Positions 2,395 through 48,942 of a stretch of DNA of 64,000 nucleotides are shown one piece after another (the stretch's first letter is position 1; every line of letters starts with the position of its first letter). Below the pieces are notes generated by a model. The model was given only the letters and a program-made list of their open reading frames with translations, was not told where the DNA came from and did no database searches. The position numbers were made by a program, and so were the translations under genes. Source of the stretch: Amoebophrya sp. A120 (taxonomy: Eukaryota > Protista > Dinoflagellata); contig CAJINV010000008.1 in assembly GCA_905178155.1 (NCBI GenBank), forward strand, positions 3,398,013 to 3,462,012, in the 5' to 3' direction.

Positions 2395-3330
2395 ACCGGC
2401 GCGCCCAAAAAATCGGCGGCCGCGCGTCCCGGGCGCGAAAAAATCGTAGGCCGCGCGTCCGGGGCGCAAAAAAATCGTGGGCCGCGCCTCCGGGGCGCAA
2501 AACAATTGTTGCTTGCGCGTCCCAGGCGCAAAACCATTGCCGGCCGGGCGTCCCGGGCGCAAAAAAATCGGCGGCCGGGCGTCCTGGGCGCAAAAAAATC
2601 TGCGGCTCGGCGTCCTGAGCGCAAAAAAATCTGCGGCTCGGCGTCCTGAGCGCAAAAAAATCATTGGCCGCGCGTCCCATATGCAAAAAAATTGTGGGCC
2701 GCGCGTCACGGGCACAAAAAAATCGTCCGCTGCGCGTCTTGGGCGCAAAAACATCGTTGGTTGCGCGTTGCGGGTGCAAAAAAATCGTTGGCGACGGGTC
2801 CCACGTGCGCAAAAATTGTCGGCAGCCGGTCCTGGGCGCAGAAAAAATGTCTGCGGCGCAAATGGAGCGCAGAAAAATCCTCTGCCACACAAACGCAACG
2901 CAAAAAAATTGTCGGTCACGCATGCGGCGCGCAAAAAAATCATCAATCGCACGCTCATGGTGTAAAAAGATTATTGGCCACGCGTCCACGGAGCAAGAAA
3001 AATCATTGGCCGCGTGTCTGAGGCGGAAAAAAATCATCCTCCATGCGTCTGGGGCGCAAAAAAATCGTCGGCCACACGTCTGGGGCGCAAAAAAATCGCC
3101 GACTGCGCGTCCACGACGCAAGGTTGCACCTCTAGGACGCAAAAAAATTATCAGTTGCGCGTCTAGGGAGCACGAGAATTGTCGGTCACGCGTCTCGGCC
3201 CCAGAAAAGCCGTCAACTACGTGTCTGGATTGTACGATAGTGGCTGGCTGTGCGTCCGGGAGCCGAAAAAACCGTCGGCCGTGCGTTCGAAATGCAAGAA
3301 AGTGGCTGGCTGCGCGTCCAAAATTGGCAA
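2395..3330. repeat. Degenerate ~31-bp GC-rich tandem repeat with one A5-A7 tract per unit, about 30 copies
   Basis: Consensus is approximately GGGCGCAAAAAAATCGTCGGCCGCGCGTCCN (e.g. 2431-2460, 2461-2491). Copies decay towards 3330. Confidence 0.9.
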
Positions 3331-4495
3331 ATAGGGAAACCGTCCCACTTGTTAGCACTATGGGACACGCGGGGCGTCCTATCAGGCCCGGTGTTCCGAT
3401 CAGGAGCGCCATCGACTTCGCGCATAATAGTTTAGGCGCTGCCCATCTATTTAACTCATCACAAAAGCACCGCACACCCCCGGGCGCCAATGTAGGAGCG
3501 CCCGCTGCCTGCCTGTGAATCGCGTGGCCCCTCGAGAACGAGCTGGGTGCGTTCAGGGATCCTTTCAGGCGCGCTGGTTGCCCGCCGGGGCCCGCAAGGA
3601 CGCGGCGCCCGACAGCTGGAAGCGCAAAAGAATCGCCGTCCGCCCCACAGGACCGCTGTCGAGGCGCGCAGGGAGGACTAAAAAGGTCCTGTGACCATGC
3701 GGGGGCTGCTTGGCAGTCGCTGCGCGCGCTAGGAGCGCGAAACAGTCCCCGTCTTTGCGCCGGGAATGCGGGAACGCGCACCGTCCGTGTGCCTCGGGTG
3801 TCAGTGAGTCGCGGTCTGCGTGCGGGGAGCGCCACAAATTCGCTACCCGCGCGCCACCGGCGCAATGAAGTCGTCAACTGCGAGCCGGGGCCCGCCCGCA
3901 CCGAGCCTCGCTCTGTGTTTGTGAAGCAGGCAAGAACCTGTGTCCGCGCGTCGGGAGTACCGAAGCGTCTCCGTTCGTCTTATGGCCGCGGTAAAAGGTT
4001 GCCGCCGCGCACCGCTGAGCCCCGGAAATTACCGCTTGTCCCCCGATGGGGCCAACAAAAACGCGCAACGACGGCCCTTGCAGTCGCCCACGACCCCTAT
4101 CCGTGCAGCGGGGGCCCTCGAGTTTACTCGCCAGGACGCAGGACCATAGAAAATATGTCCGCTGCTGTCGCTGCCGGAGGACCTAACTCGCGCGCCTCGA
4201 CGAATTCCGATTGCATGCGCCGCTCCGGCGCTCGCCCTACTTCCGGCAGAGAGCCGGTGAGCCCGGACGTGCTTCTCGCTGCCGGGCCGTCTTCCTTCTT
4301 GCTCGGAGGCGGGTCACGAAAGAACAGGTGAGCCGGATCGCCAAGCGACGCTCGCACAACGGGGGTGGAGACGCCTCGCCTGATCGATCGGTTTGCTTGC
4401 CTGGGCAAGTGTGCTAAATCTTACCACTAGAAGTGTGGAGTAGAGAGACATCACGCGGCTTCTTTCTCTTTTCGCGATACGGTACGCAAGCCGAA

Positions 4496-8319: not shown

Positions 8320-11300
8320 ATGTCGTTTTTCGCAGCCTGCGCGCAGCGGGTTTGCGGGAAGGGAAAGCAGAACCGAACGGGCGACGGAATGACTTCCCAC
8401 GGGAAAAAAGCCGGGTTCTTCCAGACGTTGCGGGATGGCAAAAAGCTCCACGAGCGCATTTGCCTGAATGCGGTCCTGCGGCCATGGCGGACGCTGTTGC
8501 AGATCACGCTCACCTGCATCGTGCTGTACGTGCTAGCGCTGGTCACGAAGAACTATTACCCCACCGGGCTATGAGAGTGCACAACGCCCCCTCCCCCTCA
8601 TTTGTAATGCCAAATACCAAATCCACGTCTTGCCTTCGAGCACAGCTTGCATGACAAATTTTGAACCCTCAAACAGTACTATAATCCGTCTGCAGATTTG
8701 TCATGCGGATGTCACATTTCTGGCGTTGCTTGTGTTGCTGCTCATGCCATTCATATGAGGGGGAGGGGGAGTTGTGCACTGTCATGCGGGTCCGTCGAGG
8801 TGGAAAAAAACGTCAACATTTGGCGGCCGAAGTCGCACAAGCTGATGCAGGACCAGCATGCGTTCGAGGCGGTGACGGCCTGGACGCCTTTGTGGAAGGA
8901 GGCAAGCGAGGAGTTCGAAACCGACGCGGAGCGGCACCGTCGCTTGGCCGCCGCTTTTCCCGCCGTCAATCCCGAAGTGCAAACCGCCCTGCACGGCCCC
9001 GCGCCGTCCGCAGCGAGTCAGAATTTCGGCGGCAACGCGCAAATCGTGTACAAGACCAAGGGTGGCAATTATCAAAATGAAAAGCTGGCGCAAGTCACGT
9101 TCTGAAGTACAAAGAATCTGCTGTTTTGGAACGTTTTCAAAAAGCGACTTGCTGTTTTACATGAAAGACCTGCGGGCCTTCTTATCGCTAAAATGGAACG
9201 GAGGCTGTGAAACAAGCATCTCCACTTCCGCAGCAAATGCTCCGGCTGCAGTGCAGCTAGGGTAGGTCTTCGCAACGCAAATTGTTGCTCTACTTCTGCG
9301 TCGAAAATTTGTGCTATAGTGGTACGAAAAATGTGTGGCACTTGAGTCCTCCTTGTGCTCCCAAGCTCTGGCGTACTTAATATGTGCGCTTTCTTTCATT
9401 TCGATACCAACTCTAACGTGTTTACAAGGGGGAATTTGTACGCCATGTGCCGGTTGGAGCAGCTGTGGTACACGTGGAACGATTTCGATGACGGTGCCAG
9501 TGGGAAGGACCGCTTCCTCCAGTCACACACGCGGCTGTCGAACCTGCTGGTGCAAAGTTTCGTCAGTCCGGGGAAAACGCTCAGCCAAAACGACCCCAAC
9601 GCCTTTCCCGCGTCCGATTGCGACTTGATCTTGGCGAAGTCGCAGGCGGAAGTTGACGTGGCGGTGAAAGAACGAATCTTCGACCTATCCGGGCGCAGAA
9701 GTCAGAAGTCCTCTTCTTTTCAGTGCGATCTCGTCCGTCGACTGCTGATGATTGAATGAAAGCGCCATGGTGAGCAGCAACTGCACCGGCAGCGACAGCG
9801 CTGCAACACAAGCTTGCAGAGGGCAACTTATCTTTTTTCTACGAACAACTGCAAAGTTGTAGTCCTATCGAACGATAGGGAGGTGCATCGACGTCATCTG
9901 GAGTTTATCATGCAAGATTGTGCGTAAAATGGATATGGAACTTTTCGTTTTGGGCGGCGTTATTTTTTGCTTGAGACATTTATCTTGTAAGTGAACGTGA
10001 ACCAATGATTGTCAGAGAGGGACTCGTCCTGCTTCTGCCCTTCCATACGACCGGTACGAGGTAGACAACCAGGCGCAGTTTGGGTTTTTCCTGGACAAGA
10101 ACTTCAGTGCCATGACCACCACGCCGAAATTCACGTCGTTGACCCGTTCGGGGTTCCAGGAGCTGTCCGGCGATTTTGCGAAAGCCGAGGACGCGCTGAA
10201 AAGCCTGCAAGCGTTTTTGAACGTCGAGTCGTCCTTTTTCCAACCCTTGTTCGTCGTGGACGACAAGGAGCACAAGTTTGTCCCCATGCCGCAATTTGCG
10301 CAGGCCGCGAACAACCTGGAGGTGCGCATCTTCGATCCGGCGCTGGCCAACGCGGCGGGCCGCATGCTGAACCTCGGCCGCGACCTGGGCGTCGGACTGC
10401 CGATCACGTTTCTGATCGTGTGGGCGATCATTTTCTCCTTCACCAACCACAGCAAGTTCTGCGCCTCGTTCGTGCTCGTCTTCGTGTTTCTCTCCATGCT
10501 CTCCGGCTACACGGGCTACTACCTGCTTGCGCGGCTGGCCTATATGGAGCCCTTCATGTCGCTCACCCTGTTTCTCATGCTCGCGGTGGGCGCCGACGAC
10601 TTCTTCGTGATCTGGGAGGCGGTGCGGCTGGAGCGGGCGCAGGCGCGACAAGACGCCAAGGAAATCCTGCCGCAGATCGAGGTGCTGACCGCGATGCTGG
10701 AAAATTATGAGCTCCCGGTCACCGCGATCAAGTTGCCCCAGGAGTTGGTGCTGCGGCAGAGGGATAAAATGAAGCTGACGCGCCAGATGTTGAGCGGTGA
10801 GGTACAAGTGAAAGATTCTTCTTCGGCGGCAGGCGTTTCGGACGGTCTTTCTTCTCCTGTTAGCATCGATAGTACAAGAACTGCCGAAAGCAGGCAGATC
10901 GAAATTTACCTGGCTTTGTACCGGGGATCGCAGCGCGCCGCGGCCAGCATGATGGAGACCAGTTTGACGACGGCCTTGGCGTTTTTTTCCATGGCGAGCT
11001 CCAACGTGCCCCCCATCGCCAGTTTCGGCATGTTCGCGGCCTTCATGATTCTCGGCAGCTACGTGCTCGCGGTGCTGTGCTTCCCCTCGGTATCGTGAGT
11101 AAAAACGTCCCCACACCAGAGTTGTAATGCAAATCTGCATGCTGAAAATGTTTCTCATGCGGAGACCCATGAGAAGCAGTCTCTAGTCGTGTTGTGGGAT
11201 TTGTGATGCTAGAATCAGCATGATATGCTAGATCTGTGATGCTGCTGAACAAGCTAAACAGGATTACACTGCGAGGCCAAACTTGTCATGCGCAGCAGCA

Positions 11301-14094
11301 AAAGCTGACAGATTTGTCTAGCAGATTTCCCAGCTTGACTCTGGTGTGGGGACGTTTTTACTCAGGATACTCGGTCATCGGGGCCTACTTGCTGCAGCTG
11401 GAACACAAGCCGACGGTGTGGCAGTGGTGCAAGGCGAAGTTGTTGCGTTTTTTCAACGCACGCAAGCAGAGCAACGAAGTTGTTCAGCAAGACGGTGAAA
11501 CTCAGAAAAATCAGGGTGTAACTGCGACAAGTAATAACGGTGCTGCTGCGCTGATGATGCTGCAGGAGGGATCGCCGGTGGTGATCGATACTAGCGAACA
11601 GCATCACAAGTCGACAGACGGCAACAAGAACTGCGACTTCGGGTTGAAAAATCTGCTGCAGGAACAGACGCCCGAAAAGCTGCAAGCTTCGGACGCCAAA
11701 CTCGCAACAGGAAATAAAGCAAACGCCAATCAGCTGCACAACGGTTTGTTTCAAACCGCCTTCGTTGCGGCCAATGCGAACGATAGTACACCCACTGCAG
11801 CCATCGAACTTGCGGTGGCGGGTTTTCCACCGGAAAAAAAACCCGGAAACTACGCAAATACCGGGACCACGTCCATGTTCACGACCGTCGCAAATTATAC
11901 TAACGAGGAGGGGAAGCAGGAGGACGGGGAGCAGCAACAGCAGCGGACCACGCGCCTTCTCGACAAAGCTATGGACAAGACGTTTGAGTTTTTGACCGCG
12001 AAGAGAATCACCGTGAAAGATAACTACACGCTTTTTCCGGTAGCTTTACTGACGGTGCTGCTCTTCACGTCCCTCTCTATCTGGTTGTTTGCCGAGGCTA
12101 CCACCCTCCCCTCGCCCTCCGCGCCGTTTGAGTTTCTGCCGGACACCCACATCATGACCGGGTTTCACTCGGACAACTACCAGCTCTTCCTGTCCAGCGG
12201 GTCGAAATCCGAGTACCGCAAGCTGCACATCGTGTGGGGGCTCAACGCCGATCAGCCGTTGAAGAATCACGACGAGCTGTCGAAGTTCTTCCCGTGGACC
12301 TGGAACGCGGACCCGAATCTGGTGCCCATCGACGCGACCGACAAGGACAGCGTAAGTTTTATCCTGCGGCTCGGAGAGAAGCTGCAAAACCTGAACTGCA
12401 ACGGCAAAAGCTTTTGCAAGGACCGCGTCGTTGGGAACAAGATGTTCGTCCCCCGTTCCCTCGAGTGCGGGCTGCGAGACACGATCTTTCCCCAGCTACG
12501 GACCAGTGCAACCACTCCGGCTACGAAGTTGACGGAACTATACTACGACGGCGTAGGCGGAGGTTCAACAGCGTCAATCTCCTCGACTTTGGACGCGAGC
12601 GGCGGCTTCGACTACACGACTTTGTCCAACCCTACGTGGTCAGCTGCAACAGCTGGAGCAGCCGCGGGCACGTTGAGCGCAGGCGTTCTAGCCAAGGAGT
12701 CTTACTACCGCTCGCACGCCTCGTACGACTATTCGGCCCGCGCGAGGCACTCGTCGCCCGTGCGTCGAGTGTCCGGAGGCACTTCTGCGGCAGCGGATGA
12801 TCCGTTTGCCGTTGACTGGATCGAAACGACCGATGCGGCGCACCCCGGGACGGGCACGTTTGCCGGTCGGGTTTTCAAGTGGAAAGGGATGAGCAGTGCG
12901 GCCGGGGGAGCCTCTTTGCAGTACCAGCTCTATTCCCTGACGATCTCCATCCCGCTCACCGCTTTGAAGGACGGTACCAGTTTCACTGATTTGGAGTCCC
13001 TGAAGGAAACCGTGCGGGTAGGCGGGAAATAAAAAAAGTTATGTTTATTTGGTGTATTAATTAAACCTCCCTGTATTGATTCTGCCGAACATGATGCACG
13101 GCACAGTTTGTTACTACGCCAGTCTTCGTCATGCGCGAGAGCCGAGAACATCTGCGGAGTTCATGAATGCTGTCTTCACGTACTTACAACTCGTACGCAA
13201 GCTATGCAAAGGTGCGGCGTGCGTTCTGTTTTACACAAAGTAAAAACATAACTACTTTTTTCCGGGCTATAGAGGGAGCTTCTCGACCAAGAAAATGCCA
13301 GAGCGCCGGCGAAGCTTGGAAAAGCAATCCAGATTGCGGAGTACGGAACCTACACGTTAAACTACGAGCTGAAGCAAACTTTGGTGTCCGGCCTGATCCT
13401 CTTAATCCCGCTGTGTTTCGCGATCCTCCTCCTGGCCTCGCGAAACCTCGTCACGGCCTTCCTCGCGATTTTTAACGTGATCTGCATCGTGTCGCAGGTG
13501 ATGGGCAGTTTCCGCCTGATGGACTGGGAGCTGGGCCTGCTGGAAACGGTGGCCGGGATTCTGGTCATTGGCTTGGCTATGGACTACACGCTGCACTTTT
13601 CGCACGTGTACACGGAGGCGGGCCGAATCGATAGTGATGCTCCTCATGTGGAACAAGCTGCGGATGGAGAGAATAAGCACAGAACAGGCGTCGATCCGGA
13701 GTCGAAGCTGCACAGTGAGGACCACGACGGCCCTACGCACAGCTACGAGTCCCGCGAGTCCCGGGTGCAGTTTGCCTTCCAGCACATGGGCCCGACGATC
13801 TTTGCCGGTTTCTCAACCAGCATCGCCGCGGGTCTGTTTCTGATGCTGTTCTGCGTCACGCCCTTCTTCCAGCAGATGGGGGTGGCGATCTTTCTCACCA
13901 TCCTCTACTCGCTCGTCATGTCGCTGTTTTACCTGCCCGCGGTGCTGCTGCTCTGCGGCCCGAGCGGGAAGTTCGGGGACTTGGTGCTGCTCTACCGCGA
14001 GTTCAAGGCCCGCACCATCGGGGAGGCGCGTGGTTCCACGGGACAGAAGGATGAAAGCGGGATCAGAAACGGAGCGGCTGCGGTGGAGCCGTGA
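8320..14094 (+). CDS. Dispatched/Patched-like RND superfamily membrane protein with sterol-sensing domain
   Basis: Exons ~8320-8568, 8791-9068, 9411-9685, 10053-11090, 11375-13017, 13273-14094. An N-terminal TM helix and two TM bundles carry GxxxD(D) motifs: LAVGADDFFVIWE and IGLAMDYTLHFSHVY. Also TSLTTALAF and MGPTIFAGFSTS. Confidence 0.85.
8570..8786. mobile_element. Introner
   Basis: TSD CGGGC/CGGGT. ~33-bp TIR: ATGAGAGTGCACAACGCCCCCTCCCCCTCAT versus ATGAGGGGGAGGGGGAGTTGTGCACTGTCAT. Removal gives YYPTGSVEVEKN. Confidence 0.9.
9070..9406. mobile_element. Introner, aged
   Basis: TATCAAAATGAAA...TTTCATTTCGATA, TSD GCAAT/CCAAC (3/5). Removal gives KTKGGNSNVFTRGNLYAMC. Confidence 0.75.
9686..10047. 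mobile_element. Introner
   Basis: TSD CGACC at 9681-9685 and 10048-10052, ends TAT...ATA, IR core GCAGAAG/CTTCTGC. Removal gives RIFDRYEVDNQAQFGFFLD. Confidence 0.85.
11091..11369. mobile_element. Introner family A (279 bp)
   Basis: TSD CTCGG. 32-bp TIR TATCGTGAGTAAAAACGTCCCCACACCAGAGT with one mismatch. Same length and related sequence as 34327-34605. Removal gives LCFPSVIGAY. Confidence 0.95.
13019..13271. mobile_element. Introner, aged; also readable as GT-AG intron 13018-13272
   Basis: TSD GCGGG/GAGGG, ends TAG...ATA, IR core AGTTATGTTT/AAACATAACT. Both splice readings keep the frame. Confidence 0.7.
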
Positions 14095-28688: not shown

Positions 28689-31600
28689 ATGGCTCCGTCG
28701 GCGCTGCAGCAGAGCCAGCCGTCGAAGAAGAACGGGAACAAAAAGGCCAAAAACGATGACAACAAGGAGAATGAGGACCCGGGCGTGGCGAACGTCAAGG
28801 GGGCCCCGGCGAAAAACCCCCCGACCGGGGTCGAGAAGCTCTTCGGCGAGATCTTTGTGGAGACCAGCTCGGGCGACATCGGGTTGCAGGTGAAGGACGG
28901 CCCCCTGCTGCGCTGCCACACAGTGGCGCTGGGTCGGGTCCCCGGGTTTCTCTCGCAGTTGCGGACGAAGCTGAAACCCCTTCCCCTGTACATCGAGAAG
29001 CAACCCTTGAACACCATGAACTGGCTCAAGAGAAAAGGGTTGAAACGGATCGCGGAGCAGATCCAGTTCGCGTCTTTCGCCGAAGATCGGTACACGGAGG
29101 GGACCGACGTGGTCACCAAAGGCGGCTGGACCACGTGCGACACCATGAGTGGCACCAGGTGCGGGTTCCAGAGGAAAGACCCGCTGCGGTTGGCAGAACG
29201 ATACGAGCTGTCCGAAGACGTCGAGCGGGCCGTGGAACTGCTCAGATTTGTGTACTTTGTTTTACTGTTACTAAGTTTGTTGAGAATTATCATCTTCGTC
29301 GAAGTGGCTTCCGGTACGACCATCCAAGAACTACTTACAGAACGTAGATACAAGTTTTGTACCGGGTCTGAAACTTTTTGCTGATCTTATATATCCGGTT
29401 CTAACGTGCCCGTGCGTGGTACTGATACTTCGTCGGACATTTTTTGTCACAGATACCTGGACCAGATCGAATTTATGTCGATGAAGCCGGACACGGAGGA
29501 GGCCAAGAAGAAACTTTTGAACCAGATGGTCGACATGCTCTTTCTCGCAAACCGTTTTGCCGTAGACCAACTGTTCGCCCGGTTAATGCGCTGGTTTCCC
29601 GCGCACTGTCGAGCGGTCTGTGGCGACGCCGCTTTCTGCGACGCGTACTACAAAATACAGTACTACTGGCAATACTCCGTGGAGGTATAATCTTTTGAGC
29701 AACCAATCTTCGTTTTTTTTTTCATTTTGAAATGCGAAGTTCGTCATTGTATGCGAAGGAATATCATTTTGCATGGAAGTTCTATCATCGCGACACTGAA
29801 AATCTCGCGTAGCTCTCCTGTGGCGCTTCTGCGAGGAGGAAAGGTGGATAAAAGTACTCAAAAAAAAATCGAATCCTAAATCCTACCATAGGAACCGCTG
29901 TTCCGCAATCTGATGAAGCAAACGCTGGTTGGCATGGGCTGCGTGCGCATGAACTTCCAGCTGCTTTCCTGGGACGACCGCTGGACGAGTTTGCCCTACA
30001 CGTTTCTCCAGCTCATTCTCGACCACGACGACTTGGCCATCACCTCGGAAGCGGAGCTGCTCGTGCTGATAGAAAGGTGGAATGTATCCAAGACAAAAAA
30101 CTGTGTTAGTGTAACTATCTGTGGCTGACAGCATCACAAATTTGCTCTACGTGACTGAGTAAACCTGTCATGCGTGGCTTGAAGGGGAAAACACACGCGA
30201 AAAGAGGGCGCTATGGTTGTCTGGCATGACAGGCGTAACTCTGTTGCATCTTCTGCATTACAAAGTTACACTTACACAGTTTTTTTCTTGCATAGAACGC
30301 CAACCGGGACAAGGACCCGGAGGAGATTTACGAAATCTGCTGCTGCTATGGAACTGTCAGGATCGAGATTGACAAAATCGAAAAATTTGTGATGCGTAAA
30401 ATGTATGACGCGCAATACGTGTGTTGCAGAGCAGGCAAGTGAGGCCGATTGTAAGCCTGTTTGGGGTTATAGCTCGAGCTGCTAAAGCAGCGTGAGAGAA
30501 TCAGTCTTCTTTGCCTAAACAGCATTGCAAACTGGATTTAGGCACCGCCAGAATTTGTCACGCGCAACTTAGAAACTGGGTTCGAACTGGAATCCATTTT
30601 ATGCATGACAAATCATTTCGATTTTGTCAATTTCGACTCTGACACTTCCATAGCTGCTACCGCCAGACGCCCGAGAACGTGGAGGCGCTGGTGTTTTTCC
30701 TTTCCAACCTGGGCATGCTCGAGCAGAGTACCGCGACGGCGAAAAAGGAGAAAAAAGTGGACGAGTCCGCGTTCAGCAACAAGGAGGACGCCATAAAGGC
30801 GGGCCAGTTGGCGAAACTCTTCGCGGTATTGCCCAGGAGAAACACCAAGCCAAGAAGGGGCAAAACGGAAAAGAAAAAGAAAAGTACGTTGTACTATACG
30901 ACTACGAGGCTTGGTTTCGTAAGTCTAAATTAAACTAAGGCATGATCATGCTGTTTTCGATAGTGTGTCAATCATGAAAGATGCCGACCTCTGCGTCTTG
31001 GTGGACGCGACAGGATATTTGAAATTGTCATTTTTGAGAAGAAGTTCAACTGCAGCCCCGTAATTTTTGGAAAATATACAAAAAACTTAAAACAACAAAG
31101 TCTTGTTTCCCCATTACTTCCAAACAGAGCAAGAATCCGGGCCGAAGGACGCAGTGGCAGAGGGTACCGCGGCCGCCACGGGGGATCAGGACGACGACGC
31201 ACCGGAACCAGTGGCGGACGATTTGGCGGGGGCATTTGCCGCGGTGGAGCAGATATGCATTTCAAATGTTTTGTCCGTGTCATTTGGAAAGTTGTGATGC
31301 TAACTTGAGCATTCGGTAACTCGACGGCAGTAGGCAGAGTGAAAAGCATGACGAAGAAGTTGAGCATGGGTGTGCTCTGTCCATGACCTCTACTACTGCC
31401 GCAAGATGTATTGCAGAGGTTGCAGTCAACATCGCATTTGCGCACTGCAAGGCTTGCGATCATCTTCCAGAGGACCCGGATGGATTTGCAGTGGATCACG
31501 GAGTAACCAGGTCGTCGAAGTGGAAGTAGAGGACGAAGACCTCGGTACGGAATTCGCGTTTTTTGTCATGCGGAAACGTGTGTGAAGGGGTGAAAAATGG

Positions 31601-33635: not shown

Positions 33636-36600
33636 ATGACGTTTTTCACACGACTCCTCGGTCGGTTTCTCCCGACCTGGTTGCTCGGCATGAACGGCAA
33701 AACCGTCACAAACCTCGACCGCTTTCTCTCCTACCTGGGGCTGGTGTACTTCTGGGCGTTCGCGGGGTACTATTTACAGGTCCGGGCGCTCTACGGCTTA
33801 AATGGTCTCATGCCGGTGGCGGACATGAAAAAAGCAGGCGGCGGCGCACAGTCGCCCTATGCGCCCTTGCCCTACCTGAGCAGCGCACTGTACGCTATTT
33901 TTGGCGCAGGAACAAGTACATCGAGCACAAGCACCGATCACACCGTGCTGGAGGCGGTCAGTCTGTTGGGTATGGTGCTATCGCTGCTGCTGTGGCTCTT
34001 TCCGAGAACTTGGCTCCTGCGCTGCGGAACCACGTTTGCCTGTTGGCAGTGCTATCTCGCGCTGTACTCTGTAGGTATAGATGTTGGTGAAGAATTTTTG
34101 TGTCTATAGAGAGTCAATCTGTATCGCGTTGCTGACCTACAACTACTTGCTTCCTTGAAGCTTTCCCTACATACTCACAAGGACGAGACACGACGAGACG
34201 CAGAGCTGCTGTACAGGACTGTCATCATCAAAAACTAACCATGAATTTCCTATCAGGTCAGACGTTTCTCTCCTTCCAGTGGGACATTCTGTTGCTCGAA
34301 GTGGGTTTCTTGGCCAACCTGTACAATATCCTGAGTAAAAACGTACCCACGCCAGAGTTGTAATGCAGATTTGCAAAGACAGGAAGACTTGCAACGCGCA
34401 TCCCCATGAGAGCCATTTCCAATCGTGTTTTGGAATTTGTGATGCTGTGAACAGGATGAGCAGATGAATCTGTGATGCGGCTGCACTTGCTAACCTGCAC
34501 TACACTGCATAGTGCAACTTGTCATGCGTGACTTACAAAACTCCTAGGTTTGTGTTGCAAAATCCCCATCCTGACTCTGGTGTGGGTACGTTTTTACTCA
34601 GGATATACAACTTGTCCTCTTCGGTCTATTTCCACAACTGCGTCGATTGGCTCCTCCGCGCGCTTTTCGTGAAGCTAATGTTCATGACCGGCGTAGTGAA
34701 GCAGTCTTCCAACTGCCAAACCTGGAAGGATCTGACCGCCCTGGAGTACCACTACGTGTCCCAGTGCCTGCCCACGGAGATGGCCTGGTTTGCGCACCAG
34801 GTCCACCCCTTTGTGAACCGACTGGGCGTCGCGTTCATGTTCTCCATCCAGCTGGCGCCGGGGATCCTCCTGATTTACGTGCCCTACCTGCGGGACTACG
34901 TCGCCATGCTCCACGCGGTATTGCAGATCGGGATCTTCCTCACGGGGAACTACAACTGGTTTAACGTGTTAAGCGCAATTCTCCTCTGGCCCTGCCTCGG
35001 CAGCGGATCGACCGCATCTTCGGGGAGTGACTTGACTGGAGACGCGTCCAGTGGAATTGCATCACTCACAAGTTACGGCGGCGGGAGCAAAAGTAGTGGG
35101 AGCACAGGTGTTGGTCGTGACAAAGGCGCGATAGAAATGACGACTAATTATAAATCGACTAGCAAGAGCAAAGCAGGAGCGGGTGCGGAGAAGAGTAAAG
35201 CGGCCATGAAAGCGAGTCGGTTGGCGACGCCGACGAAATCTTCGTCGAGAAAAATCGACTTACTTGATGAAGCGGCTTTGGACCTCGACACTGGTTCTTC
35301 GATAAGTGGGAATGAAGTACAAAAAAACGCAACAACACCAGCAAATAAATCGAAGGACATCAAAAACTCGTCCGCCATGAGCAGTCATCTGAAGCTGAAA
35401 AAATCCTCCTCTTTGTCGTGTTTCCAGAAAACGAGGAAGCAAGTTTTCCTCCTGTTCGCGTGCCAACTGCCGCTCCTCGTGCTGATCTCGCTGTTCCTCA
35501 TCCTCCAGGGCACGGACTTCGGTGTTACAGAGGATTTATCTGACTTCGTGGCAGCGAAGATGGTGCAGCTTCCCGGCGAGGGGAAAATCCAGCAGTTGTT
35601 GCCGACCAGCTTTGGTGCTGGTGTTGCTCTTGTGCAAAGCCTCTTCAGCGCGGAAACGCTTGCGGTTGTGCTCGCGCGGTTCGAACTGATGAAGGATGCC
35701 GTTCTTTCCTCGGCTGCTGTCGTTTTCAGCGGTGAATATGAAGAACACCCAGGCACTTATTTGTTCGCTTTCGGTCGTGCGTTGGAAGGCTTAGATTTTT
35801 GGAAAATTTTCCACGGCGATTTTTTCACTATCAAGTCCACCATTACCGACGGCGGCGTCCGGCAGTACCTGCACTGGTACACGCAGTACGGGTTGGTCGC
35901 GGTGCAAATCGCGTTCTTCATTTCCGCCCTCCGGTACCTCTTCGCGGTTACCGCGGACCATGACGTCACGTGCTTCGACCTGTGGAGCGGAAAAGGGCAC
36001 AGCGCCCGAAAGAAATCCAAAGAACCCCCGAGCCTTGCGATCGAGGACGGCACGCCGCACTCGTCCGCGGTTGGAATGCTTACTACTTCGAACTCATCGT
36101 ACAAGAGCCACTTCAGCACCGCTCCGGACGGCTCGCCTAGCTCGACGTGGACGTCCATGCAGCGACAGAACCAGGGCGGGGCCGCTTCGCCGCCGACGAT
36201 TCTGTCGAAGACGAAGCGGATTTTCCTCTTTCTCCCCATCGCACTGGTCCGCCTAGCGGCTGCCTTCGTCGCGCTCAACCTCGGCATGATCCCCTGGGCG
36301 CACCTGGGCCCGACCAATTTTTTGCTGCAGAAGGAAGTCATGACGCACGTGTACTCCGAGCTCTTCAAGCACGACCAGTACTCAAGTTTATCTAACAGCT
36401 ACGGCCTGTTCCGCCGCATGACCGGCGTCGGCAGTCACGACCGATCGGCGAAGAAGGTGCCGAAGGTGAGCGGTTTGCTGGGAATGGTGACGGCAGGAGA
36501 TGATTCGAATTCTACGAAGATGAACAGTACGAGTGTAGAACTTTCCGTCGCACCAGCGAAAAATCCACCCACAGAGGAGGCGTTTTCTCTCCAATCCGGG

Positions 36601-37581
36601 TACGCGGGGCTGAGTTACACCCCGGTGCCGAAGGTCCCGGTGCTGATTTTCGAGGCGCAGCTGAAATCTACGGGGCGAAAAACAAAAACATCAGCGGATA
36701 TTACGACGAGCAGGGAGAAGTGGCACGAGATTCCCTTTCGGTACGCACCCACTTTTTTGAATAAAATGCCGGTGCGCACGGCGCCCTACCAGCCGCGGTT
36801 CGACTGGCAGCTCTGGTTTGCCGCGCTGGCGGACCAGTATGCCGGGCAGTCGTGGCTTGTGAGGATGCTGTGGCTGCTGATCACGGAGAAGGTGCAGCCT
36901 GCCGCTGGAACGACAGGGGTGGCGGGTTCTGGTGAAGAAGGATCAGAAACTTCTGCACCCCCGCTCTACTCGCCGACCACGGACGTGCGCGAACTCCTCG
37001 AGCTGGATACGAGCACGGATGTGGACTGGCGCACGGCGGAAATCAAAGCGGTTCGCGTGCAGCGGTACTTCTACGACTTTTCGCGCTACGAAAACCCGCC
37101 CTGGCACCCGAAGCAGCAGGGGAGCGGGAAAACGGGGAAAGGTCCTCGTGTGAAAAACAATAGCGACGGAGGAGAACTAAAGTCTTCCATCAACCCTACT
37201 TCTCAGTGGTGGACCCGCGAGTACGCCGGAAAATGGCTGGACACCGTGGACGCGACGACGCTGGCACCGCTGGCCAAGTCGCAAAAGTGGAAGTTGGCTG
37301 AGGACGCGGATACGAAGAGGAAGAAGAAAAAGCCGCTCCAGGGTCTGGAAAATTTTCTCTCGACCGTGCGGGAGTTCCTCGTGCAGAAACCCAAACAAAT
37401 GCTCAAGGGCTTCGTCCTGAAAGGCGGGGGAAAGGAGGGTAAGCAGGGTGCGGGGGCCGACAGTGAAGATGGATCACTCAGCAATATTGTCGACAGCGCC
37501 CGAGCGGTGCTGGCAAAGGTGGACGAGAATTTCCTCTTTCTAACCGTCCCGCCAGTGCTGCTGGCGATTCTGGTCGGGTGA
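33636..37581 (+). CDS. Lipase maturation factor (LMF1/LMF2 family)
   Basis: Exons 33636-34074, 34257-34326, 34611-37581. Motifs GQTFLSFQWDILLLEVGFL, KLMFMTGVVK, WKDLTALEYHYVSQCLPT, LTGNYNWFN, NSYGLFRRMTGVG, APYQPRFDWQLWFAAL, WWTR. Confidence 0.92.
34327..34605. mobile_element. Introner family A (279 bp)
   Basis: TSD TACAA, TIR TATCCTGAGTAAAAACGTACCCACGCCAGAGT. Homolog of 11091-11369 in the same orientation. Removal gives LANLYNLSS. Confidence 0.95.
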
Positions 37582-38577: not shown

Positions 38578-41500
38578 ATGAACACACCGCCGTTCTACAA
38601 GCTGCACACCCGCACGGGCTATCAAATGTAAAAATGTCTGGGTCTGGAAACTTGTAATGCTAAAAATGAATGATAGACGCACTGCAACAAGCAGCTATGC
38701 ATGACAAATTTTTTGGCTGCCATGTCTTACGTATTCCGCATGGCAAACTGCGTTTTTGCATGACAGATAAGAGGACTTTTTCGTGCCTATGCAACACAGA
38801 TTCTCGAGTCATGCCAGACAAGCATGACAAACTTGCATTCTTCCAGACCCAGACATTTTTGCAATCCATACGGGCGGTGCGCCACCACCGGTGATAGACA
38901 AGCAGAACTACTTCCCGAGTTCCTCTTCTACGTCTTTAGCCGCACCAAACTTGGACACCGAGCCGGGAATCACAGGAACTTCTGAAGTAGAACAGACACC
39001 GCAGCCCATGGTTTCTACGAGTTTGATGCAACCGCCTAATTTACTAGCGCAGTGGGCGAAGCGCTCGCACTTAACTTGCTACCACCAGTACGACCACCAG
39101 GGGATCTGCCACCCCAGTAGGTGGATCCAGGGGACGAGCAACACCTCGGAGGATGCAGCCCTCAAGAAACAAACAGAGGGGGAATTCTGCAGCAACCATC
39201 CTCTGCCTCCTGACCGGTCGGGAGCAGCAGGTACTGATGGCTTCAGCTCCTCCACCGGGGAAAATAAAGTTTCAAACAACCCCGACGAGGACAACGACGA
39301 AGCTCTTGCCGGGGGTTCTGATGAACCGGAGGACGATGCCGTACTTATCGACCTCTACGACTACGGGCACAAGGCGAAGATCGGAATTTCCAAGAACAAG
39401 CGGGCCGAACAGCAGGACGCTTTTTTTATCTTCCAGGACGGCGAAGAGCACTACTTCGGCGTGATCGACGGCCACGGCCCGGAGGGCGGCTGGGTCGCCG
39501 CGGAGCTCCAGAACAAGGTGCCAGAGTTTTTGCGCAGTTGCGACGGGGACATGTTTCGGGCGTTTGAGGCGACGGAGGCGTATTTAGCGGAGGACAGCCG
39601 GAGCTACTGCAGCGGCGCCGCCATCGCCGTGGTGCACGTGAATCCGGAGGTTGGTGCTTCTATTTTGTTCTTGAGGCCAATATCGCAGAATGATTCAAGT
39701 CATGTTTTCCGTAGTACCATCATATCTGCACGTTGGATGTAGACCCTGAACGGCAAGGGTTAGGGTGACCAACTGAAATACGTAGTTTCTCTACACTTCA
39801 ACTCGCTCAACGATAGATGTAAACCGCATGACGATCAAAATTGACTGTTACGCAACATGAAGAAAAAAACAATATTCAGATCGTCGAGTGCTGGCACCTT
39901 GGGGACTGTCGAGTTTTGTTTATCAACTGTAAAAATGTCTGGGTCTGGATCTGGAAGAATTCATGTTTGTCATGCTTGTCTGGCATGACTCTTAAATCTG
40001 TCATGCACGTTACCCAAGAGCTCCGTTTTTCTGTGATGCAGAAGCGCAGTTTGTCGCGCGGAATAGGCAACACCGAGGAGCTCAGAAACTTGTCATGCTG
40101 GGCCAGCATTTGGAGCCTCATCATGAGACGCCACCCAGCATCACAAGTTTCCAGACCCAGACATTTTTACATTTGATATTGTTTGGCTCCCGTCCGTTGA
40201 CGGATGACCACTCCGTGCGGAACCTCAGCTTCCATATGCAAGAAAAAAACTGTGTAAGTGTAACTTTGTAATGCAGAAGATGCAACAGAGTTACACCTGT
40301 CATGCCAGACAACCATGGCGCCCTCTTTTTATGTGTTTTTTCCCTTACAAGCCACGCATGAAGTCATGTAGAGCAAATTTGTGATGCTGTCAGCCACAGA
40401 TAGTCACACTAACACAGTTTTTTTCTTGGATATTCCAGGAACGCATGTCACTGTCCACAAAAAGTATAATCGTGTGTTACTAATTCTTGGTAGTGAATTT
40501 CTTCGACTAGATATTTGGGCGGAATAGATCAAAAATAGATTGGCCGCCAAGCTACGAGCATAGCGCGGCGCCTGGAAAAGAGATTGCTCCGGCCCGCGAA
40601 AGTTGGCCCAAACACCACGGCACTCTCTTACCTGGGCTGTCAGGTTTTGGGGCCAGGTAACTAAGAGAGCAGCGCGGTGCTTGTGATGCGAAAACGTCTT
40701 GGCCCGGGAAGGTGGCCAGATAAGGAGGGTGATCTTGAAGCACAAGCAGCACGCTGTGCTCTTACCGGGGCCTCTAGGCTCTGAGGCCCGGTAAGAGCAT
40801 AGCGTGGCGCTTGGAAAAAAGACCGCATCGGCCCAAAAAAAATTCGTCCAAACACCACGGCACTCTCTTACCTGGGTTGCCGGGTTTTGGGGCCAGGTAA
40901 GAGAGCAGCGTGGTGTTTGGGATGCGAAAATGTCCTGGCCTGAAGAGCGGAGGTGGCCAGATGAAAGAGACACCCTTGAAGCACAAGGCCGCGCTGTGCT
41001 CTTACCTGGGCCTCCAGACTTTGAGGCCCGGTAAGAGCATAGCATGGCGCTTGGAAGGAAAAAGACCGCGTCGGCCCAAAAAAAGTTGGCCCAAACACCA
41101 CGGCACTCTTTTACCTGGCCTGCCAAGTTTTGGCGCCAGGTAAGAGCATAGCGTGGCGCTTGAAAGGAAAAAAGGCCCCGTTGGCCCAAAAAAAGTTGGC
41201 CCAAACACCAGGGCACTCTCTTACCTGGCGTTCCAAGTTTTGGGGCCAGGTAAGAGAGCAACGCTTTGTTTGGCTCCCGTCCATTGACGGATGACCACTC
41301 CGTGCGGAACCTCAGCTTCCAGGAACGCATGTCGCTGTCCACAAAAAGTATTGTCTGCTACTAGTGTAGTTTTTCCAGCATGTCGTGAAAGTGACATCTA
41401 CGTTTGTTAGGTGTGCGTGATTCAGATTCTCCAAGCTGCGTATTCTCGTTGGTTTATCCGTTTGTGAAGATGATGATTAGTAGAATTTTTTCTTTCCCAA

Positions 41501-42456
41501 AAACAATCCAGCCGGCGCCCGCTTTCTCTCCGGAAACACGCGCGTGACGCTCTCCGGCGCTCCGGGTTCGCTGGAGTTGATGAGGTGCTTTGGGGACCGC
41601 TGGGGCAAGGAGACCGGTCTGTTTTCCGCGATTCCGGACCACATCAGAGTAACGAGACCGGAAGCTCTGTCCGAGCAGGGAAACCACGACCAGAAGGTGT
41701 CGCCGGACATCCTGGTCGCCAGTGACGGTGTGTTCGGTGTACTGGACAACGTGGAGGTGTGTGAGGAGCTACAGCGCACCAAAGCCAGGTCGCAGGAAGA
41801 GGCTGCAGCGAGCGGGGGTAAGGGTTTTTCTTGTAGCTTCTCAACAAAAATGGTCGTGCATTGATCATGTCTACGTGATGTCACAGCTGGCGAATGAATT
41901 CTTGCGAGACAGAAAAAAGTAAGTTTTGACGTCGTCGTCCTCTAAGACAGCACATTGATAATTATCAACAGCCACCACGAATCCGGTCGAGGCGGTGATG
42001 CGGCGAGCCATCGAGCAGCGGTCGACAGACAACATCACTTGCGTTGGTATTTTTACCCGGAAGATAAGGAGGAGAGCAAGTAGCCGCCGAAAAGAGGCCG
42101 GTCTTGCTGGAACCTCAAATCGAAGCGACACCAACGTCGCATCAAACGCCACCGCAGCAGCAGCAGCACCACCACCACTGAACGTAGATCCAACTGGGGC
42201 CAGGACCACCGACAAAGATGAAAGTAACCGGAAAATGAATGATGGAGCTCGTCTTGGGGCGAGATCCTCCAACCCCGTTGCGCCAACGACGACGGAAGTA
42301 AGCGGAAATGGTTCCTCCTTGTTGCCCCCGAGGTCATTCGACTTTTCGGTCGGTGACCTTCGTGACAAACGACAGTCGCGGGAGGATGGCGCACGAACGC
42401 ATGCCACCGCCGCTTTTAGCGCAGCAGCGCTACGCGGCAGAGGGCTCCGGGCGTGA
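38578..42456 (+). CDS. Protein phosphatase 2C (PPM family)
   Basis: Exons ~38578-38619, 38876-39649, 39880-39920, 40184-40234, 40438-40463 (or the duplicate 41271-41347), 41512-41817, 41972-42456. Motifs KRAEQQDAF, FGVIDGHG, SGAAIAV, HLGDCR, LTDDH, LMRCFGD, LVASDGVFG, STDNITCV. Confidence 0.9.
38620..38870. mobile_element. Introner family C (251 bp)
   Basis: TSD CGGGC, TIR core AAAAATGTCTGGGTCTGGAA. Removal gives HTRTGGAPPPVIDK. Confidence 0.93.
39921..40178. mobile_element. Introner family C (258 bp), inverted relative to 38620-38870
   Basis: TSD TTGTT. Its 3' end is the reverse complement of the 5' end of the 38620 element, and the interiors align in antisense. Removal gives GDCRVLFGSRPLTDDH. 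Confidence 0.95.
40235..40432. mobile_element. Introner family B (198 bp), inverted relative to 30085-30294
   Basis: TSD TTCCA, TIR TATGCAAGAAAAAAACTGTGTAAGTGT. The empty site is visible near 41317-41321. Confidence 0.95.
40550..41273. repeat. Intronic tandem array of six hairpin units (~110-135 bp spacing)
   Basis: Each unit has CTCTTACC(T/G)GG...CC(A/C)GGTAAGAG inside longer imperfect stems (one copy carries a small insertion). Hairpins start near 40608, 40743, 40848, 40984, 41091 and 41201. Confidence 0.9.
41266..41351 (+). repeat. Introner-free duplicate of the PP2C exon segment 40179-40234 + 40438-40467
   Basis: Identical to the spliced segment apart from CCG>CCA and TCA>TCG, with a single TTCCA at the junction. 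Confidence 0.95.
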
Positions 42457-47119: not shown

Positions 47120-48942
47120 CCACTCGACACGAGGAAGAACGAGAGCTGAGGAGCAGCCAGCTCTAGTCTGGACGATGCCACGGTCGATAAGGAAAGTGAC
47201 GCACGGTGTTGTCGACTAGGATTCCATTCCAAGGAAGCCGTCGTGCACCAGTATGGGCCGGTTGTGCCCCACTTGATAACGTCGGGCAGGTGGGCGTGGT
47301 GTGCCGTTGTGCAGGGCAGGCGGAATGTGTCTGGGAAGACCTGGTCCTTGCGCCTGGTGCAGCAGAAACAACCGCTGCAAGGTGAAGACAGGTGATACTA
47401 CTGTTCGTTCTTCGACGCAGTCAGTCGGAACTGGCACATGCAGAGCTGGTTTCGACTGCGCAGAATACCTCCAAAAAGTTCTTAACTGGTCTGTTGCGCA
47501 GAACCTGAATACGATGGCTTTGAAAAAGGTCAGTTCTGTCCAGGGTGTAACAAACGTATGAAGGCGATAAAAAATCAGACTACCAAAAACGCTCCGATTG
47601 TCCGCGGTGGATGGTTTTTGCCTCAAATGTGTTACCTTTATCGCAGTGGCGTCAAACGCAAACCCGGTAAAGATTCGAAACTACACCGATATGATGACTC
47701 GCCTGAGAGCCGGGATCAGATATTGAGATGTCGAGCGTTGTGCCAATGCGAGAGCCGAAATCGTAGAGCACATACACTGAGAGTCTCGAATGAGTTACTG
47801 TTTTTTAGTTTTTCCTCCGTCGCCATTTTTCGCCAAAAAATTGCAACGTGCTTTCGTTGTGCTCTGTTCGAATATCTTCGAAGCCATCTGCGAAACAAAA
47901 AACGTAGAAAAGAGGTTTCTGATTCCTGATCTTCAGGAAAAAGGGCTTCAGCACTCGTGGTCACAAGATTTCGACTTTCACCTGTACCGAGGCTGTACGA
48001 CAGAGAAGCATGGTCCGCGCAGATACTGAGACCGCGGCTCGCTCTCCGCGAGGATTTTCATCGCGGCCCCCGAGCAACACCAGCAAGCCTTGCAGCTGTC
48101 CGGGGATGAAGAAAAAGGAGGAAAATTCCGAGACCCGCTCGCTGCGCATGCAGTTGCGCCTGATCAAGATGCTCGTCGCCTGATCAAGATGCTCTTCTGA
48201 CAAACGCAAATCTGTTTTACGGCCGACGTGGTGGTTAGGATTGCCTGACTGCTGCGTTGAGCCCAGCTTGCGTGACGGCGTTCGCTGCGTAGCCGCCTCT
48301 ACTATAGCAGTACGCGTGGTCAAGTCTAGCTCATGAAAGCACTCGCCGGAGCTCTTACAGCCCCGAGTTCGCCCCACTCCTTACAGCTCCTCACGGCAGC
48401 TCATGTATTGCGGGAGGGGTACAAGCATTACTGTTAGCCGCCTCTACTAGTACAGTAAGCGTGGTCGAGCTCTAGTTCATGAAAAAACCGGCTGCACTCT
48501 TAAAGTTCCGGTACGCCAATCCCCTTGCGTGCGTGCGTGACACCTCTGATCTGATCTGATCAGTGTCGTGTACTTTTCCGGGATTGGCGCATTCGCAGTA
48601 GTGCAAGACCAAAGGAAGAAAAGCGGGCGGTTGCTGCGGACCGAACGGGGTGTGGAAGAGGATGTGCTGTACACCGTGGGTAGCGGCGATGAAGGACCTG
48701 CGTCTACTGCTGGAATTACATCTGGTGGCAAGAAGAGGGGCGTGGCCTCGGGAAGCAACGGGCTGCTCTTCCAACTTGCGTACGGTATCTATGACTGGTT
48801 GGCGCCGGCGGAGACTGTTGGTGGCGACATGAGTGCAGGTATCGGTCGTTGGTGTTGACGAGGCTGACGTAGCTGGTGTGTCACGTGGTCGTCTCTGAAT
48901 GGTCTTGCAGAAAATTTTGGTGTCATGCATCGGTAGTCGCAT

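Follow-up and report, generated by a model that had tools for sequence, protein, structure and literature searches.

How did one exon piece of a PP2C gene come to stand twice in the same genome, once interrupted by an introner and once without it? The question is raised by a 64,000-nucleotide stretch of DNA from Amoebophrya sp. A120 (the window, from whose first letter positions are counted). Our answer is that the locus holds a real in-genome pair of filled and empty sites, one that a hairpin-array element probably left behind as a side effect of duplicating long pieces of host DNA.

The 86 nucleotides made up of 40179–40234 and 40438–40467 (copy 1) align without gaps to 41266–41351 (copy 2), with 84 of 86 positions identical; an earlier note had described the second interval as 40179–40467 minus a 198-bp element and one TTCCA, and the alignment bears this out (self-BLAST E-values for the two halves of the copy, 3e-23 and 8e-12). 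Both differences are synonymous, again as claimed: position 41283 is G in copy 1 and A in copy 2 (CCG/CCA, Pro), and 41334 is A and G, respectively (TCA/TCG, Ser). The two fall in about 19 synonymous sites, and a synonymous-only pattern has p 0.06–0.13 if both arose in copy 2 and 0.15–0.28 if they arose in either copy. Selection on copy 2 thus found no significant support (p 0.06–0.28 for this pattern). Two further observations of the earlier note proved correct: the copies end in the same donor (A followed by GTAT), and joining either to 41512 yields the same protein; and the left junction of copy 2 carries a 7-nt TGTTTGG microhomology (41267–41273), common to the repeat unit of the adjoining array. 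The match of copy 2 to introner-1-free sequence reaches one base further left (41265 T = 39915 T, where the filled site has A), which may be read as one base of evidence for a template lacking both introners. The 19-nt spacer that follows copy 1 weakly resembles 41352–41372, the start of the downstream intron (shuffle p = 0.043), with p = 0.60 in a wider flank comparison. Elsewhere in the window, at 48290–48517, an 85-bp stretch occurs in two copies that are 78% alike and 145 bp apart.

The gene was identified with part of exon A as the query; of the three proteins found among 66 candidates, P0001 was the top match (100% identical). P0001 includes the whole 516-aa product of a spliced model that begins at 39008, whichever of the two copies the model runs through; the first PP2C exon, which lies upstream of 38620, was read off the sequence by eye. 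The other GT-AG introns of the gene measure 230 and 154 nt, and the 164 nt of 41348–41511 are likely its original intron at this place. A stop-free frame of 1022 codons lies upstream of the gene, at 34513–37581. Coordinates are collected in the table.

Table. Features of the PP2C locus, in window positions.
Feature	Position	Strand	Details
PP2C gene (PF00481)	38578..42456	+	protein P0001, 574 aa, Amoebophrya sp. A120
Introner of the introner-1 family	38620..38870		TSD CGGGC
Exon B, ends in left TTGTT	39880..39920	+	RNA contigs, joint 39647/39878
Introner 1	39921..40178		258 bp, 29-nt inverted ends, TSD TTGTT, spliced out
Copy 1, first part	40179..40234	+	expressed exon 40184-40234
Introner 2	40235..40432		198 bp, 32-nt inverted ends, TSD TTCCA, spliced out
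Copy 1, second part, and GTAT donor	40433..40467	+	exon 40438-40463; donor apparently used
Spacer between copy 1 and hairpin-array element	40468..40486		19 nt; candidates: filler, carried flank, decayed extension of the duplication
Repeated hairpin-array element	40487..41265 (about)	+	about 55-nt left end, six long hairpins in 106-136-nt units
Copy 2, introner-free duplicate	41265..41351	+	intronic in assembled mRNA
Remainder of probable original 164-nt GT-AG intron (41348-41511)	41352..41511	+	
Downstream exon	41512..41817	+	RNA contigs

To see which copy is expressed, we took runs X3–X6 (two samples of one study) as RNA: in their contigs the introns of the gene are missing, cut out at GT-AG ends. 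Each of the four has one spliced contig whose 83-nt piece on 41265–41347 shows two mismatches, and the neighbouring pieces of these contigs show none. An mRNA from copy 2 is expected to give zero mismatches over this interval and an mRNA from copy 1 exactly two (41283 and 41334); the mismatch count, rather than printed letters, is thus a strong indication that the dominant mRNA uses copy 1. The SNP-based expression check proposed in the earlier note, run here on RNA-like contigs, accordingly points to copy 1 in 4/4 runs. With copy-1 alleles in the mRNA, splicing must have removed introner 1, introner 2 and a GT-AG intron of 1048 nt (40464–41511); this intron holds both the array and copy 2, so the protein would be unchanged, and an unchanged protein gives no sign of functional novelty. 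Among the raw-read RNA runs, X11 contributed 79 reads, only on an introner end, and X12 and X13 contributed none.

Introner 2 has the marks of an Amoebophrya introner: 32-nt terminal inverted repeats that start with TAT (arms 91% complementary) and a direct repeat at its borders, TTCCA standing on both sides of the element and only once in copy 2. The 5-bp target-site duplication (TSD) that the earlier note drew from this comparison holds more widely, since all six TAT...ATA inverted-repeat pairs from a strict scan of the window carry a 5-bp direct repeat. The element is also repeated, with a contig depth far above that of the flank in run X1 (contigs whose kind is not on record, DNA-like and possibly the assembly's own data) and a paralogue in the window at 30085–30294 (89.5% identical, 10 substitutions in 198 aligned bases). 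It appears to be spliced out, all four RNA-like runs fitting by mismatch count the copy-1 alleles without the element. The paralogue lies in the opposite orientation, has an imperfect 5-bp repeat (GAATG/GAACG) and stands 52 bp from another introner (30347–30652). The family of introner 1 is very large, the summed X1 contig depth over its interior being thousands of times that of the flank. Published A120 introners have inverted repeats starting with TAT and 3–5-nt direct repeats and resemble MITEs, according to the excerpted account in PMC7789003, and excerpts of PMC12130899 describe diverse transposon-derived introners in A120.

The array between the copies (about 40487–41265) is a repeated element that the earlier note had missed. 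Its six hairpin units are of two alternating types and fold at a z of -10.8 relative to shuffles, and its right end falls inside a unit. A contig over 40504–40628 has a depth of 184.6 against about 44 for unique flank, which as a rough guide corresponds to roughly four copies. A hairpin-pattern search returned five metagenome loci and no matches in viral contigs or prokaryote genomes; further likeness to the array was confined to one of the five, locus L002, and the other four were treated as chance matches. The L002 array is 85% identical to that of the window over 405 nt, and several introner families are common to the two regions, one of them (11091–11369 in the window and 4370–4652 in L002, 90% alike) with a more distant member at 34327–34605. 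The left end of the L002 element is homologous to that of the window element (0 of 2000 shuffles reach the score), and the L002 copy is longer (minus strand, 3171–4131), with additional sequence inside it and a right end elsewhere in the array. A third left end comes from an X4 contig (one of the four RNA-like runs; depth 32.4) that matches 40487–40603 and has unrelated sequence before 40487. Dispersed copies with a common left end and unrelated flanks are therefore found in the window, in L002 and in this contig.

At L002, a 47-bp direct repeat with two mismatches (3171–3217 and 4085–4131; score 41 against 13 for the best of 2000 shuffles) flanks the element. The upstream repeat begins about 130 nt past the stop codon of an introner-rich ALAD gene, in whose sense the element lies. 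Long direct repeats of host DNA, of 86 and 47 bp, thus flank the element at both of the loci with two flanks. An empty allele of the array insertion was not seen, none of 76 metagenome pattern matches for a related PP2C locus being confirmed. A 317-codon minus-strand open frame in the array was rejected as a gene (no homologue at near lengths, no Pfam match above the cut-off), as were two sub-threshold Rfam miRNA hairpin matches; at gathering score, Rfam gave no match for the array. The window also holds a G+C-rich tandem array at 2407–3112 (about 23 units of 31 bp with A-runs), which has no long flanking direct repeat.

The reading that we favour, at somewhat better than an even chance, is that the 86–87 bp are a long TSD made by the array element and that introner 2 entered the upstream, expressed copy later. 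This retains the earlier note's suggestion of a duplication followed by insertion into one copy, and the long direct repeat around the L002 element is its counterpart elsewhere. The element would have entered at two offset breaks, separated by about 86 bp and situated close to TTGTT and directly behind the GTAT donor; its left end is constant in three copies and its right ends differ in two, the window copy ending at the 7-nt microhomology. By the allele match, the element and copy 2 would then leave the transcript in one 1048-nt GT-AG intron, with the protein unchanged, and introner 2 would have inserted afterwards at TTCCA with its 5-bp TSD. Copy 2 is likely, then, a record of the site before introner 2. 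For a long TSD speaks the empty length of 86, nearer to the 47 of L002 than the filled length of 289; a later insertion of introner 2 is favoured by its divergence from the paralogue (10/198), which allows introner 2 to be about as old as the duplication (2/86).

Several points count against the favoured reading. Both flanks are available at two loci only, and the left edge of the duplication lies at the TSD of introner 1, which requires either chance or an added step (a nick at the inverted repeat). Should the T at 41265 be real evidence, a single 87-bp stretch would have taken up two introners since the duplication. The reading offers no explanation for the 19-nt spacer, and it is a mild oddity that both differences are synonymous. 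The element itself shows no enzyme, poly(A) tail, B box or conserved hammerhead core. Our first guess is a non-autonomous partner of a non-LTR retroelement, inserted by target priming, and our second an HUH rolling-circle element. The misfits in the left edge, the 41265 T, the spacer and the synonymous pattern keep three rivals alive.

The strongest of these, which we nevertheless think unlikely, is that copy 2 was written from RNA. At a break directly behind the donor, a reverse transcriptase would have taken as its template a pre-mRNA of the same gene, partly spliced, with introner 2 already out and the GT-AG intron still in; the enzyme would then have stalled at the 29-bp stem of introner 1 and jumped via the 7-nt microhomology to the element's RNA. 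The earlier note had considered repair from a spliced transcript; a completely spliced mRNA is ruled out by copy 2 itself, which retains the GTAT donor and extends into the 164-nt intron, and it is the partly spliced template that survives, at the same low probability. Such copying accounts for the absence of introner 2 without a later insertion and for the edge at introner 1; moreover, the element lies in the sense of the host gene at 2/2 loci, and its left end is present in one of the four RNA-like runs. Set against this are several unusual steps and an unseen enzyme, the small weight of two loci in the same sense, and the T at 41265, which fits an introner-1-free template rather than a hairpin stall. 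The L002 repeat cannot separate DNA from RNA templates, because no intron is seen within it. Were RNA the template, the element's 'target-site duplications' would be RNA copies with introners precisely erased; a genome could then lose introners directly by this path, and the copies would be evidence for hairpin introners leaving the transcript ahead of a neighbouring GT-AG intron.

Quite improbable, in our estimate, is a 289-bp duplication that included introner 2 and later lost it cleanly from copy 2, whether by cut-and-paste excision with the ends rejoined at the 5-bp repeat or by conversion with cDNA. That the duplication starts precisely at 40179 agrees with a DNA template in which introner 1 was already present. 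Precise loss is usually a minority outcome, copy 2 bears no footprint, and 289 bp is six times the length of the L002 repeat. The MITE-like character of introners, as given in excerpts of PMC7789003, speaks for excision.

Less probable again is out-of-register recombination at the 7-nt microhomology between an introner-rich upstream allele, with the array already present, and an introner-free downstream allele. Two functional alleles would differ synonymously, as both differences do, and would account for the likeness between the spacer and the first bases of the downstream intron (p = 0.043). Neither of these statistics carries much weight, and the wider flank comparison gives p = 0.60. No second allele is needed, because L002 has a flanking repeat with the same element.

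The earlier note had also proposed that the copies could act as mutually exclusive exons, a role that the assembled contigs do not bear out: all four RNA-like runs fit copy-1 alleles, and the copy-1 form alone is seen, in contigs that drop rare forms. That the copies are alternative exons, mutually exclusive or tandem, is highly improbable. Copy 2 does keep frame and donor, and rare forms would be dropped from contigs; joining the copy-1 donor to the AG at 41254 would add the second copy in an open frame of 547 aa, and joining the exon A donor to the AG at 41256 would give an open frame of 507 aa with exon B lost. Neither joint is present in the four runs. A true swap needs removal of 39921–41270, and for this we found no splice route: the ends of that stretch lack inverted-repeat pairing of the kind that introners have, pairing at -12.6 kcal/mol against -43.9 kcal/mol for the ends of introner 1.

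Both copies most likely reside in one genome, since two haplotypes would share the depth. One X1 contig (41235–42141; zero differences, depth 43) joins the array, copy 2, the intron and downstream exons and extends 31 letters to the left of copy 2; another, at copy 1, covers 40407–40516 (zero differences, depth 40.4), with short sides of 26 and 30 letters. The haplotype or assembly artefact for which the earlier note had proposed a check is thus countered by a single-copy depth for each copy, 40.4 and 43 against 44.8 in the upstream flank. Such an artefact is most improbable of all, even with no contig through both copies among the eight pieces listed of 7405 in X1, short contig sides at copy 1 and a run that may be the assembly's source, for alleles would split the depth of these zero-difference contigs, and the mRNA links copy-1 alleles to the downstream exon that X1 links to copy 2.

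Introners themselves are already known. For the hairpin-array element, we found no description in the Amoebophrya literature on introners, recombination and TSDs, a provisional result, as unseen supplements may list the family; four motifs had no match in 12 of the 14 supplements of PMC12130899, and a narrow literature search requiring all five terms returned no precedent. Amoebophrya introners have been assumed to be MITE-like, and a filled and an empty site in one genome fix the 5-bp TSD and the ends without an outgroup. The locus further points to a non-coding hairpin-array element that duplicates 47–86 bp of host DNA. Such duplications would serve as internal clocks, each potentially giving the age of a gain or loss of an introner, and comparing them across a whole genome would separate DNA- from RNA-templated copying.

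Among known mobile elements, the array element has the behaviour of a non-autonomous insert, truncated and flanked by a long TSD, and it does not qualify for any class compared. Canonical Helitrons end in TC...CTRR and make no TSD. Neither Helitron nor Replitron ends were found in the array element: TC, TG and TT precede a common TTGG in the three copies, the right ends differ and the duplications are long. Nor is there a non-LTR or SINE tail at the constant end on either strand, or a B-box match in either copy. Excerpts of PMC10288648 describe variable TSDs with carried flanks in Replitron-1 and some Helitrons of Chlamydomonas. Replitron-1/-N1 and the non-canonical Helitrons resemble the array element in one precise end, a TSD of variable length and hairpins, the likeness in TSDs being one of description, with lengths not set against 47–86 bp; their extra carried sequence at one end compares with the 19-nt spacer, which here lies at the constant end. 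The array element differs in that short terminal direct repeats, a fixed target and a Rep gene were not seen (comparison with the excerpts of PMC10288648).

TSDs longer than 50 bp have precedents in the excerpted PMC9977147, in the LINE Dualen-4b_cRei (median 900 bp) and rotifer R9 (126 bp). These non-LTR retrotransposons are alike in a variable long flanking duplication and in having one constant and one variable end; the array element, with a body that is a long-hairpin array, differs from them as excerpted in showing no ORF, reverse transcriptase, endonuclease or tail. Penelope-like elements, as excerpted from PMC8557442, share truncation at one end, tandem internal repeats and an end extension of 30–40 bp. 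The array element departs from that description in that no pseudo-LTR or conserved hammerhead core was seen and that the duplicated DNA is host exon and not element tail. For retrozymes as for Penelope-like elements, Rfam gave no match at gathering score and each copy has one CTGANGA word.

The introners have their closest counterparts in those of Amoebophrya A120 (Farhat et al. 2021, PMC7789003). Introners 1 and 2 are like them in the TAT start, terminal inverted repeats and short direct repeats, and also in being about 200–260 bp long, repeated and spliced out. A filled and empty pair within one gene was not seen in the excerpts of that work; at the present locus the empty site stands in cis.
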